From a virus, in UHGV virus genome UHGV-0129084: a stretch of 53,693 bases of DNA; one strand, given 5' to 3'. The position numbers and the translations under genes were made by a program. The notes below the pieces were generated by a model. The model was not told the origin of the DNA. It worked only from the letters and a program-made list of their open reading frames with translations, and searched no databases. The first letter of the stretch is position 1. The number at the start of each line of letters is the position of its first letter. Of the stretch, positions 29,301-33,504 are shown piece after piece.

Positions 29301-29884
29301 ATCGCCCGGACGTTAATCTGGTCGTAGAATGGGGTAGGGTGCGGATAAACCACACTATAGAAGCTGTCTTTTCCACCCGCTGTAATCAGTGTGCTTATGA
29401 TTTTTGCAAAATCGTTGCGTTGGAACACGCTACCGATGTCGGAAGTAAGCAGGATGATGTTGCCTTTGGCATATGTAGAAACCAACTGTTCGAGCGAGAG
29501 ACGCGGTACAAAGTAGAACTGTTCTCGTGTGTTGGCCGCCGTCATTAGTTCGCAGATGTCGCGATATCCTTTCTCATTTTTAATTAGAGCGGTAAACGAG
29601 TAGTTACGTCCTCGCTCTAATGATTCCATACATCTCATAGATTCTTTAGCAAGTTTAGCCCGGTGCTCGTATGTGGGATCATCAACAATGTTTAGTTTCA
29701 CACCACAAATAACCGCCATGTCGTCACCAGCGGCACGTTGTAGTGGAATAACGCTCGCAATATTCATGCTATCTGCTGAAATTACAGCGGTGTAGCCAGC
29801 TTCTCTGGCAATCTTCACCGCGTTTTCTGCTTTTAGAGCCGACTCCCCAAGTGAGAAGTCAGTTCGAACCATCAGTGCCTTCAT
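26366..29884 (-). CDS. DNA polymerase III alpha-like (DnaE-type, family C) replicative polymerase
   Basis: 1172 aa; [12 protein letters not shown]...[28 protein letters not shown]...[10 protein letters not shown] matches the DnaE palm/fingers core; N-terminal PHP region lacks the canonical His-x-His metal motif. Confidence 0.9.
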   Translation of the reverse strand: [1172 protein letters not shown]

Positions 29885-30062
29885 GTGTTTTTACCTTTCT
29901 GGTTTTTTTGATTTTGTCATTGGGGAAGCCTACGAACTTCCCATGCATCGAAATCGCAACTTCTTTTGCTGATTGGTGACAATCGGGCTTGTCTGGACAC
30001 ACCAGACAAGCCTTACCAGTTTCAGAAGCAGCGATAAGAGAGCCGAAACATCCTTTACGCAC
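29859..30062 (-). CDS. Small Cys-rich hypothetical protein (67 aa)
   Basis: CFGSL..CLVCPDKPDCH cysteine pattern; overlaps the polymerase start by 26 nt. Confidence 0.3.
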   Translation of the reverse strand: MRKGCFGSLIAASETGKACLVCPDKPDCHQSAKEVAISMHGKFVGFPNDKIKKTRKVKTHEGTDGSN

Positions 30063-30064
30063 GA

Positions 30065-31300: not shown

Positions 31301-31395
31301 GCGTTTTTCCTTTGTTCTCTAATGAGCGTTCAACTTCTTATATAAATATATCATCATCTATCGTAAGTGGTTACTTATCATTAAGGCTGTTTTGT

Positions 31396-33504
31396 TCACT
31401 TTAAAATGATACGAGATAGTTCAGTAACTACAGATGAACCAAGACTATCAACGCTCGTTACCAGGGCATGATTTGAGTAAAATCTCTCCGGTGCGTCAGT
31501 CATGATGCCAATTGCCATCAAATCAATATCAGTCTGCGTTTCAATTTGCTTCGCAACTGAACGCAAATGAGCGTCAAAACCTCTCCCAACAGCCCACGGC
31601 GCGCCATCACTCAGAACAAGCATGATCTTCCTGTCCTCCATGCGACCGGAAAATAACGATGCAAGGCTGGCTATGCTTTCACCATCCACGTTATTAAGAA
31701 GTGGGAATGTGTAGCCTACGCACCCCATACGTGAGCGAACTTCGCGAGAATTTGCTTTTTCATTCCAATTTTTGATGATAGGTAGCATTAAAGATTCAAA
31801 GCGAGAGAACTCATACTTGACAGCCTTAAGTTCTCCTGCTGCCATATGACTGCCAAATGTAGTGAAGCCGGTGATAATGTTGGGAACATTTATTCGATCA
31901 AGTGCATCGGCGATGGTATATGCACTTGCAAGAGCTAGTTTTATCGTTTCGCCACTCATTGAACCCGATAAATCAATCACTTGTTGAACACAGGCGTTAA
32001 CGGCTTTAGATTCTTCTTTTTTACGAAACACGCGATCATCATTCATTGTTAATCTGTAGATACTTGAACCATGAATGCGCCCCCGACGCTGGCCAGGTAT
32101 AAACTGAACTCTGTTTCTGCTTGCTATTGCACGTTCCAGGTCTTTTGCCAGCGTCGACGAAACACCTGACGAAAGGTGCTTTTCAATATATTTGTCGAAG
32201 AGCTGGTTGCCTTCAGGAACGATGCGATAGCGGCTGATTGGATATCCTCCCAAATCAATATCGGAGAATGTTTTAATAAGCCGTTTGATATGGGCTTCTG
32301 CCTGATCAATCGAGCCGATGAAGTCGTATGAGCGATTGTATGGCCTGTATTCGCTTTTCGAGCTTTCTGTTAACTCGCTTTTAATCGTTTCGGATAGCGC
32401 ATCTTCTGTCATGCCTCCGACTTCATCTTCCATGCTATCCAACTCCTCTAAAGCCTCTTCCAGACTCATTTTTGACGGAGTTGGGATATCTGAAGAGCCG
32501 TCTTCTGTCGTTTTTCTTTTTTCGTGGTCAGCGGTTAATGATTCTGACGCCGCGTTATCAGAAGCATCAGAATCTGATACCTCTTTATCATTTTCTGTAT
32601 CATCGAATATTGTTTCTGATGATTCAGAATTATCTGAATCATCACTGTCGTTATTATCATGTTTGTACTTACTATGTGATTCTGATTTGATAGATTTGTG
32701 ATTATCTAACGCTGAGGGTGTCTCATGATCTTCGTTGTCTTCACTGTTTTCTCCAGAGGCATCCGTCTGGTCAGCGTCTGAAGGATCGGAAGTTTTTCCC
32801 GGAGCTGACTCCTTACCTTTGCTTTCACTTTCAGTGTCTTTGAGGATCTTAGCTATGGTCGCAGCCACCTTTACACAATCCTCGGTGCAAGACATGTTAC
32901 GCACGGCCACATCGATACCATGTTCTTTTAATAATGAAATTGGTTTCTCAATGACAGGCCAATATTCATCCATGAAATCTACGAACGGTGCTTGGCCATC
33001 CCAGGCTCTTACAACCGGACAGAGAAAGAAGTTTAGAAAAAGCGCGCGCTGATCTTTGCCACAATAAGCAATAGCCTCTGAAGCCTTTGGTTTAAAGACT
33101 TTTTCGATTATAAGGCGCTGAGTTGCCATCAGATTACGTCTTGTTCCGTTAAAGACCTGACCCATTTTTCGCTCGATGAACACGTCTTCTAAGGCATTCC
33201 ATAGCGACCAGGAAGGAACGCGTCCTTTTTCTCTCATTTTGTTGGACACACGAATATCGGTAAACAAAATGTGAGCAACTTCATGATCGAGAAATCCGCG
33301 CACAGCATTCATCAATGCCGGTGTTGCGTTATCCGGGATTGATGGGATGTTTACGAGAATTGGCTCTCCATCATCGTTATAGCGTACATAAGCGTCGTCC
33401 CCTCGTTCTGCAACAGGGATGTTTTTACCTGAAAGGAGAGCGACTACTCGTTTTACACTGTCACGGAAGTCCTGAACCTCTTTGATGGAACGTTTTTTAG
33501 ACAT
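31396..33504 (-). CDS. VWA-domain protein (CobT-like) with long acidic Ser/Asp/Glu-rich linker
   Basis: 702 aa; central low-complexity acidic region (DSDDSDNSESSETIFDDTENDKEVSDSDASD); C-terminal VWA MIDAS-like DLSGSMSGET. Confidence 0.65.
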   Translation of the reverse strand: MSKKRSIKEVQDFRDSVKRVVALLSGKNIPVAERGDDAYVRYNDDGEPILVNIPSIPDNATPALMNAVRGFLDHEVAHILFTDIRVSNKMREKGRVPSWSLWNALEDVFIERKMGQVFNGTRRNLMATQRLIIEKVFKPKASEAIAYCGKDQRALFLNFFLCPVVRAWDGQAPFVDFMDEYWPVIEKPISLLKEHGIDVAVRNMSCTEDCVKVAATIAKILKDTESESKGKESAPGKTSDPSDADQTDASGENSEDNEDHETPSALDNHKSIKSESHSKYKHDNNDSDDSDNSESSETIFDDTENDKEVSDSDASDNAASESLTADHEKRKTTEDGSSDIPTPSKMSLEEALEELDSMEDEVGGMTEDALSETIKSELTESSKSEYRPYNRSYDFIGSIDQAEAHIKRLIKTFSDIDLGGYPISRYRIVPEGNQLFDKYIEKHLSSGVSSTLAKDLERAIASRNRVQFIPGQRRGRIHGSSIYRLTMNDDRVFRKKEESKAVNACVQQVIDLSGSMSGETIKLALASAYTIADALDRINVPNIITGFTTFGSHMAAGELKAVKYEFSRFESLMLPIIKNWNEKANSREVRSRMGCVGYTFPLLNNVDGESIASLASLFSGRMEDRKIMLVLSDGAPWAVGRGFDAHLRSVAKQIETQTDIDLMAIGIMTDAPERFYSNHALVTSVDSLGSSVVTELSRIILK

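Follow-up and report, generated by a model that had tools for sequence, protein, structure and literature searches.

Several described systems pair a AAA+ ATPase with a protein that carries a von Willebrand factor A (VWA) domain. In cobaltochelatase, the CobS and CobT subunits are active only with CobN, which carries the corrin substrate (PMC7689651). A viral cobT-cobS cluster has already been described, and its products have been proposed to hijack the CobN of the host (PMC8651126). NorQ/NorD and CbbQ/CbbO follow a common two-gene logic, in which an ATPase of the AAA_5 type and a VWA adaptor with its metal ion-dependent adhesion site, termed MIDAS, remodel or metallate a client enzyme. The locus considered here is a pair of this kind in the UHGV virus genome UHGV-0129084, a stretch of 53,693 nucleotides that is referred to as the window throughout. 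Nucleotide comparison with annotated phages identifies the whole window as an SSU5-like phage-plasmid of Escherichia coli. The pair itself is an already known viral cluster, annotated in phage SSU5, in PHROGs and by the NCBI annotation pipeline (PGAP). What does it do in this element? We put at roughly 0.55 the probability that the locus encodes a phage two-component AAA+ machine of the CobS/CobT type that remodels a client and is not a cobaltochelatase in this host. The additions to what was known are modest: a contrast with cellular CobT at an HExxH motif, a recurrent replication context, and the reassignment of a small neighboring open reading frame (ORF) to dnaE.

The original prediction, made from the DNA letters alone, placed three co-oriented ORFs on the minus strand, the first two 95 nt apart, and its coordinates are exact (Table 1). 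It also read the first two as a CobT-like VWA protein with a long acidic linker and a CobS-like AAA+ ATPase, which is borne out by Pfam, PHROG and PDB matches. Residues 173–293 of the 411-residue ATPase match Pfam AAA_5 (2.1e-15, 57.4 bits against a cut-off of 22), and the protein belongs to phrog_249 (1.1e-106). Its best relative in the PDB is CobS (9ujv, 1.1e-25 over residues 142–411), followed by midasin (7.9e-12), CbbQ and NorQ. The Walker A and B motifs, N288 (sensor 1), and R312 and R367 (the arginine finger/sensor 2 Arg set) are invariant across five phage lineages. Judged by these residues, the ATPase has every catalytic position of the CobS/NorQ/CbbQ/midasin group and looks catalytically competent; by analogy with its homologues, it is predicted to form a hexameric ring and to hydrolyze ATP.

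The N-terminal ~100–140 residues of the ATPase have no counterpart in cellular CobS, since PDB CobS aligns only from residue 142. This extension had been taken for a zinc ribbon. It carries a CCHH finger pattern instead, CxxC-x4-H-x4-H, with a single CxxC rather than the two knuckles of a ribbon. C18 is invariant, and C21, H26 and H31 are each present in at least 90% of 18 ATPase homologues down to 44% identity. The motif is found in Pseudomonas phage ZY21 and is degenerate in a Rhizobium phage; the cyanophage and ICP2 versions lack it. In Gordonia phage Kvothe, the partner ATPase (L098:3385-4932) has a Cys/His-rich N-terminal extension of ~250 residues that opens with CINC...H-x4-H, which suggests that putative metal-binding extensions of this ATPase arose or persisted in distant lineages.

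The 702-residue CobT-like protein is phrog_1576 (6.9e-301) and matches Pfam CobT_C over residues 492–701 (2.5e-83) and Pfam CobT over residues 9–294 (4.1e-27). An AlphaFold2 model built with 94 homologues in the alignment (mean pLDDT, the predicted local distance difference test score, 76.6) has two confident domains, with pLDDT below 50 between them at residues 230–337. The C-terminal VWA domain is modeled at pLDDT ~85–95. The MIDAS, whose absence had been named beforehand as the refuting test of the prediction, is complete: D511, S513, S515 and D633 are present in 94/94 homologues and T548 and T549 each in 93/94, at identities down to ~30%, and the VWA fold is modeled. In a Foldseek search of the PDB, the best match of this domain is the NorD VWA domain in the NorQD complex (9qhd_G, 1.4e-8, probability 1.00), followed by the MIDAS domain of human MDN1 (8ql1, 5.2e-8, probability 1.00). 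It also matches PDB CobT 9uka_G (1.8e-17). Among structure matches in BFVD, the same combination of N-domain and VWA domain occurs in siphoviruses, podoviruses, haloarchaeal tailed viruses, and Gordonia and Brevibacterium phages.

The linker between the two domains had been described as almost pure Ser/Asp/Glu/Asn. It is indeed acidic, strongly biased in composition and disordered, although those four residues make up only 56% of it (32 Ser, 26 Glu, 24 Asp and 8 Asn in 161 residues, with a net charge of −36). Across the 94 homologues its length ranges from 135 to 299 residues and its net charge from −19 to −62; all versions are acidic, while the sequence is not conserved. The acidic linker can be regarded as a family trait because a similar acidic tract is present in cellular CobT. 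There are no tandem DNA repeats under the linker, so repeats fail to explain it.

The N-terminal domain is where the viral protein departs from its cellular namesake. Modeled apart as residues 1–232, it reaches a pLDDT of 87.1 and shows a helix, three strands, a helix carrying HExxH, and a helix rich in conserved Glu. D73, H74 and E75 are present in 94/94 homologues and H78 in 93/94; E106, D107 and E111 are present in 94/94, and E111, the candidate third metal ligand, is invariant across all phage lineages aligned. Of the five phage lineages examined, four have HExxH itself, including cyanophage S-RIM2, the ICP2-like phage JSF27 and Gordonia phage Kvothe. In the two cellular CobT sequences compared (a Sphingomonas plasmid protein and PDB 21vu/9uka), the motif is absent, and DAFALR and DSMALR stand in its place. 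The Glu helix is the sole part of the N-domain that matches PDB CobT 9uka_G with the 94-sequence full-length profile (E-value of the stretch 2.2e-4). The CobT-like protein of Pseudomonas phage ZY21 (L009:6847-8931) has SEISK in place of HExxH and retains E111 and the MIDAS residues; judging from its sequence, it could be an informative, natural “catalytic-dead” variant.

Comparisons with other proteins place the N-domain only loosely. Searched against PDB sequences, either as a single sequence or as an 8-sequence profile, it gave only chance-level matches (for example, HLA-DR and AcrIIA26), and Pfam returned no peptidase family for the CobT-like protein. Foldseek with the full-length model returned only VWA matches, which is why the N-domain was modeled separately; its own fold comparison gave modest scores, none of them reaching 8. 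We therefore call the modeled domain zincin-like and not a proven peptidase; zinc binding and peptide hydrolysis are putative properties.

Could the pair still be a cobaltochelatase motor? An explanation in terms of auxiliary metabolic genes holds that it is a genuine one, which takes over host CobN (or a CobN/ChlH-like protein) and raises cobalamin during infection. The homology to CobS and CobT speaks for it, as does the published hypothesis for viral cobST (PMC8651126); given the dependence of CobS and CobT on CobN (PMC7689651), a host CobN would be usable in principle. Against this, both proteins fall far short of the equivalog cut-offs: the ATPase scores 86.6 bits against TIGR01650 (CobS; cut-off 558.55), with a match over residues 141–411 only, and the CobT-like protein 68.7 bits against TIGR01651 (CobT; cut-off 759.05), with a match over residues 295–697 only. 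Phage Cyrano is 98% identical, and none of its 126 features carries an annotation as cobN or as any further cob gene; Cyrano encodes the B12-independent enzymes ThyX and NrdAB, the latter a class Ia ribonucleotide reductase. To our knowledge, E. coli has neither CobN nor an aerobic corrin pathway. The same pair is found in phages and plasmids of Vibrio cholerae, Klebsiella, Yersinia and Acinetobacter, and the N-domain motif and the N-terminal extension of the ATPase are unlike cellular CobT and CobS. The idea of CobN hijacking misfits this host because neither E. coli nor the near-identical phage has a known or annotated CobN. Vitamin B12 synthesis is thus an unlikely role for the pair here, and the full auxiliary metabolic explanation is highly improbable. 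A reading other than a chelatase is preferred because the equivalog cut-offs are missed, CobN is unannotated, the HExxH motif and the CCHH extension are present, and the pair occurs in ICP2-like phages of V. cholerae. In the Cyrano record (OV696614.1, 12207-15646), the genes are labeled “cobalamin synthetase” and “dimethylbenzimidazole phosphoribosyltransferase”; these labels appear to mix enterobacterial CobT/CobS names with Pseudomonas denitrificans names for the unrelated cobaltochelatase subunits.

If the pair is a client-remodeling machine, what might its client be? The gene neighborhood offers a hint. The order CobT-CobS-(Cys-rich ORF)-DnaE is kept in the related loci L002 to L010, and a longer order can be followed in relatives with an ATPase of only 35–49% identity: (helicase, primase, ligase), CobT-like, CobS-like, a sigma-like gene in some, the Cys-rich protein, DnaE with a uracil-DNA glycosylase (UDG) domain, gp32, a 5'-3' exonuclease and RecA. 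Its run from CobT to RecA extends across Rhizobium and Pseudomonas phages and enterobacterial phage-plasmids, at 35–37% identity. Other lineages place the pair near different replication genes. In the T4-like cyanophage S-RIM2, the gene for a 701-residue CobT-like protein and cobS have the gp46/47 recombination nuclease genes on one side and the genes for the gp45 clamp and gp44/62 clamp loader on the other. JSF27, an ICP2-like phage of V. cholerae, has the pair upstream of helicase and PolA. SSU5-like, Nickievirus, Rhizobium-phage, ICP2-like and cyanophage loci all have the two genes side by side. Three phage lineages thus have the pair within or next to replication genes, a context that is recurrent and not universal. 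The earlier statement that the module has no obvious role in the surrounding replication genes was an understatement.

On the client-remodeling reading, which takes NorQ/NorD, CbbQ/CbbO, CobST-CobN and midasin as models, the ATPase would assemble a hexameric ring, the VWA domain would dock on that ring, and the MIDAS metal would grasp an acidic residue on a client protein, which ATP hydrolysis would then remodel or extract. More speculatively, the tethered zincin-like domain might cleave the captured client or hold a metal for it, and the client might come from the early or DNA-replication program of the phage. The latter suggestion is made because the pair appears to share a transcript with dnaE here and is found among or next to replication genes in three lineages. 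A stronger form of this mechanism makes viral CobT the adaptor-protease arm of the machine: the ring would pull on a replication or early client captured by the MIDAS, the HExxH domain would cleave it, and cellular CobT would have lost the peptidase site. This form is tentative, and we rate it as doubtful.

Two further explanations draw on the same features. The pair might be an effector for host takeover or counter-defense, with the MIDAS adaptor capturing a host protein that the AAA+ ring and the zincin-like domain inactivate early in infection. This would suit the position of the pair in early or middle gene regions, and, as is generally known, long acidic tracts can mimic nucleic acid. Nevertheless, the pair is part of the conserved gene core of several lineages rather than of a variable island, it has no known host target, and PADLOC gave no convincing match, which together make this explanation rather unlikely. 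The sole PADLOC match, to DrmE (6.6e-4), is weak and includes part of the low-complexity linker, and the DrmE assignment was rejected. Alternatively, the pair could be an evolutionary relic without a current function in the phage-plasmid. Nothing beyond the absence of a known function favors a relic, and this explanation is barely credible given that the catalytic and MIDAS residues are invariant, or present in 93/94 homologues, down to ~30% identity, and that the ORFs are intact in 1026 plasmid records and 244 complete E. coli genomes.

Several points weigh against a client-remodeling machine with a replication-linked client. First, the contrast at HExxH is with two cellular CobT sequences only. 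Second, the replication context is positional, and much of it reflects shared ancestry within one deep lineage. Third, in Gordonia phage Kvothe, three small ORFs separate the ATPase gene from the CobT-like gene, and the neighbors have no assigned function. Fourth, what is said above of CobN and the corrin pathway in E. coli is background knowledge. Fifth, the literature as far as it was covered, which was incompletely, contains no report of an interaction, ATPase activity, protease activity or phenotype for any viral member, in keeping with the earlier remark that the function of the pair in phage is undefined; nor did this literature yield a paper that connects CobT with HExxH.

The third ORF of the trio, which encodes a 67-residue Cys-rich protein, had been grouped with the AAA+/VWA module. 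That a gene lies here after the ATPase stands: it is phrog_6337 (Table 1), its product is 88% identical in SSU5 and 78% identical in Klebsiella phages (~74% at the DNA level), and differences concentrate at third codon positions (12/20 in SSU5 and 22/41 in the Klebsiella phages), with the GTG start and all four Cys kept. On these sequence grounds the ORF is a real gene. Its GTG start lies 2 nt past the ATPase stop, and its end overlaps the start of dnaE by 26 nt. The protein is homologous to the N-terminus of 167–180-residue phrog_3616 proteins that are encoded directly upstream of dnaE in Pseudomonas phage ZY21, a Rhizobium phage and metagenomic relatives (the version in a Photobacterium prophage has 57 residues), which identifies it, by sequence, as the truncated Cys module of a ~170-residue neighbor of dnaE. 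No homologue was found beside the pair in cyanophage and ICP2-like loci, where the pair occurs without DnaE. The Cys-rich gene is accordingly taken to travel with dnaE, and not to encode an obligate third subunit of the pair, because it is absent beside the pair where DnaE is absent. The membership of the ORF in the module was therefore given up.

What kind of protein is it? All six homologues read share GC[FY]G...C-x2-C-x5-C and have identical C-x13-C-x2-C-x5-C spacing. Spacing of the form C-x(n)-C-x2-C-x5-C recalls the [4Fe-4S] motifs of EndoIII/MutY, AddB/Dna2/Cas4 and WhiB-like proteins. Pfam searches at E-values up to 1, with the short and the long forms of the protein, gave no Fe-S or other family match. 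A DnaE-associated metal module, possibly an Fe-S one, is more likely from the sequence than a third subunit of the pair. A WhiB-like reading, prompted by the Cys spacing, a basic tail and a sigma-like neighbor in relatives, was dropped when Pfam gave no WhiB match. In phage Cyrano the 67-residue gene is unannotated, and it is absent among the features listed under RefSeq E. coli plasmid matches. A sigma-70-like gene lies between the CobS-like and Cys-rich genes in distant relatives (L002:11182-11856, L006:11182-11859 and L010:10209-10844); it is phrog_351 (5.3e-13 for the L002 copy) and is absent from the window and from SSU5. Together, a sigma-like gene and a C-xn-C-x2-C-x5-C protein recall WhiB-sigma pairs, although no WhiB homology was detected with Pfam. 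The C-terminal UDG-like region of the DnaE in the window gives a weak Pfam match (E 0.022); among the UDG matches of the relatives' DnaE, the one in L008 is marked weak, and those in L002, L004 and L006 carry no such mark.

These neighbors suggest another role for the pair, that of a maturation chaperone for the replisome, which would load or repair a metal centre in DnaE (in the PHP or UDG-like domain) or in the Cys-rich protein, or assemble them. There is a parallel in NorQ/NorD, which inserts iron into NorB, and NorD is the closest structural relative of the VWA domain. A compact order CobT-CobS-(Cys protein)-DnaE, in which starts overlap or adjoin, is conserved in Rhizobium, Pseudomonas, Photobacterium, metagenomic and enterobacterial relatives, and the C-x13-C-x2-C-x5-C motif is invariant. 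However, in the regions examined, the pair occurs without DnaE or the Cys-rich protein in T4-like cyanophages, ICP2-like phages and Gordonia phages, the synteny may simply have been inherited within one lineage, and a pure chaperone role leaves the intact HExxH unexplained. We regard the replisome chaperone as a possible explanation, though one that we would not favor.

The features of the locus are collected in Table 1.

Table 1. Features of the cobT-cobS locus and its neighbors, in window coordinates.
Feature	Position	Strand	Evidence or description
dnaE, DNA polymerase III alpha, 1172 aa	26366..29884	-	Pfam PHP, DNA_pol3_alpha, finger, HHH_6
Cys-rich gene, 67 aa	29859..30062	-	phrog_6337, 3.2e-45, end-to-end match
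C5-x13-C19-x2-C22-x5-C28 motif (GCFGS...CxxCx5C)	29979..30050	-	Homologue comparison
CobS-like AAA+ ATPase gene, 411 aa	30065..31300	-	AAA_5; phrog_249
Walker B, VYLADEYD	30569..30592	-	D241 and E242 invariant; aligns with FDEYD of PDB CobS
Walker A, G175-HAGTGKS-182	30755..30778	-	G175, G178, G180 and K181 invariant
Zinc-finger-like motif, C18-x2-C21-x4-H26-x4-H31	31208..31249	-	In N-terminal extension of ATPase
Spacer between CobT-like and ATPase genes	31301..31395	-	95 nt; AAGGA Shine-Dalgarno before ATPase start
CobT-like gene, 702 aa	31396..33504	-	N-terminal zincin-like domain, acidic disordered linker, helical region, C-terminal VWA/MIDAS
VWA domain, aa ~492-702	31399..32031	-	MIDAS D511-x-S513-x-S515, T548/T549, D633
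Acidic Ser-rich disordered linker, aa 225-385	32350..32832	-	Composition and low pLDDT
N-terminal zincin-like domain, ~aa 1-224	32833..33504	-	Helix, three strands, HExxH helix, Glu helix
Glu helix E106-D107...E111, candidate third metal ligand	33172..33189	-	Conservation in 94 homologues
H74-E75-V-A-H78 (HExxH), preceded by D73	33271..33285	-	Conservation in 94 homologues
GC-rich stem-loop	33558..33590	-	9-bp arms CTGCGCGAA/TTCGCGCAG; in 98-nt leader upstream of CobT-like start

The expression signals around the trio are sparse. The CobT-like and ATPase genes each have AAGGA 5' of the start. A scan of the 95-nt spacer found no minus-strand site that resembles a promoter or a terminator, and across the trio and dnaE the first minus-strand terminator-like site lies past dnaE, at 26359-26335. 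In these promoter and terminator scans the number of sites was not above that in shuffled sequence, and no operon boundary fell inside the trio. The GC-rich stem-loop in the leader (RNA fold −22.8 kcal/mol, z −3.08) sits between a 70-residue ORF and the CobT-like start and has no T-run after it; its possible roles include those of operator, attenuator and stability element. The 70-residue ORF (33603-33815; phrog_2627, 4.9e-40) was considered as a fourth member of the module and rejected, being kept only in enterobacterial SSU5-like elements; in other lineages, the small ORFs at this position are unrelated to it.

At the DNA level, the 3646-bp region shares 99.2% identity with Escherichia phage CMS-2020a, 98.1% with phage Cyrano and 74% with Salmonella phage SSU5. 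Of 5426 complete E. coli genomes, 244 carry it, with intact ORFs and in every case on a plasmid of ~100–115 kb, and it is found in 1026 plasmid records that include Klebsiella, Yersinia pestis, Salmonella, Enterobacter and Acinetobacter. A search for related loci seeded with an alignment of homologues returned only SSU5-type loci of 78–100% identity and no further lineages. Elsewhere in the window, an IS3-family insertion sequence occupies 36329-37512 (orfA, HTH_Tnp_1 6.8e-14; orfB, rve 1e-31) and is flanked by the gene next to glutaredoxin and by a tRNA cluster (Ser, Thr, Tyr and Asn; 37829-38482). Phage Cyrano has no insertion sequence annotated at the matching place, and the tRNAs listed for it are Ser, Thr and Asn only.

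Why does the role of this pair matter? First, cobS and cobT are among the most widespread “auxiliary metabolic” genes reported from phages and viromes, and they are routinely counted as evidence that viruses boost B12 synthesis. Here, the pair belongs to the conserved core of phage-plasmids found in ~4.5% of complete E. coli genomes, and it is also present on plasmids of Salmonella, Klebsiella, Yersinia and Acinetobacter; in such hosts one would not expect a reaction that depends on CobN. Second, the viral adaptor has an intact motif of the metalloprotease type that is absent from two cellular CobT proteins. If the pair is a replication-linked remodeling or proteolytic machine, a common virome annotation needs revision. 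Third, a phage-plasmid in E. coli K-12 would be a convenient genetic system for settling the role of the pair.

How does the locus compare with the systems introduced at the outset? It is a member of the viral cobST cluster (PHROG 249, labeled “porphyrin biosynthesis”, and PHROG 1576), with the same adjacency as the SSU5 genes gp049/gp050 and the cyanophage genes for CobS and a “peptidase”, and 74–99% DNA identity to annotated phages. Within that cluster, the SSU5-type ATPases have the CCHH N-terminal extension and the cyanophage and ICP2 members lack it; there is no other substantive difference. With the CobNST cobaltochelatase (9ujv and 9uka), the pair shares the AAA+ module and the VWA/MIDAS module, and the acidic linker and the Glu helix of the N-domain are common to cellular and viral CobT. 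The differences are that the viral scores lie 6–11 times below the equivalog cut-offs, that no CobN is annotated in a near-identical phage, that HExxH occupies the position held by DAFALR or DSMALR in cellular CobT, and that the viral ATPase has ~100–140 additional N-terminal residues relative to cellular CobS. Gene order also differs, with cobT before cobS in the window and cobS before cobT in the one cellular locus read, on Sphingomonas plasmid NZ_CP155752.1. That cellular cobS-cobT pair (L017:1039-5813) adjoins genes for a BolA-family and a J-domain protein, not cob genes.

As in AAA+/VWA systems of the MoxR type, the two viral genes are adjacent and co-oriented across relatives. NorQ/NorD and CbbQ/CbbO share the two-gene logic, with NorD providing the best structural match of the VWA domain and NorQ and CbbQ matching the ATPase, at an identity to the viral pair of only 14–16%. 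Midasin (Rea1/MDN1) resembles the pair in its AAA_5 modules, which match the ATPase, and in its MIDAS domain, a top structural match. In midasin, an acidic D/E-rich tether joins the motor to the MIDAS domain, a design shared with the viral pair. Midasin is, however, a single giant eukaryotic polypeptide with six fused AAA modules that acts in ribosome biogenesis and lacks an HExxH domain, whereas the viral pair consists of two proteins. Gluzincin metallopeptidases (M48 enzymes such as Ste24, HtpX and BepA; M32; and ImmA/IrrE-type proteins such as CapP) also count among the nearest known systems, and by sequence the viral N-domain appears to have both their HExxH motif and their downstream Glu ligand.

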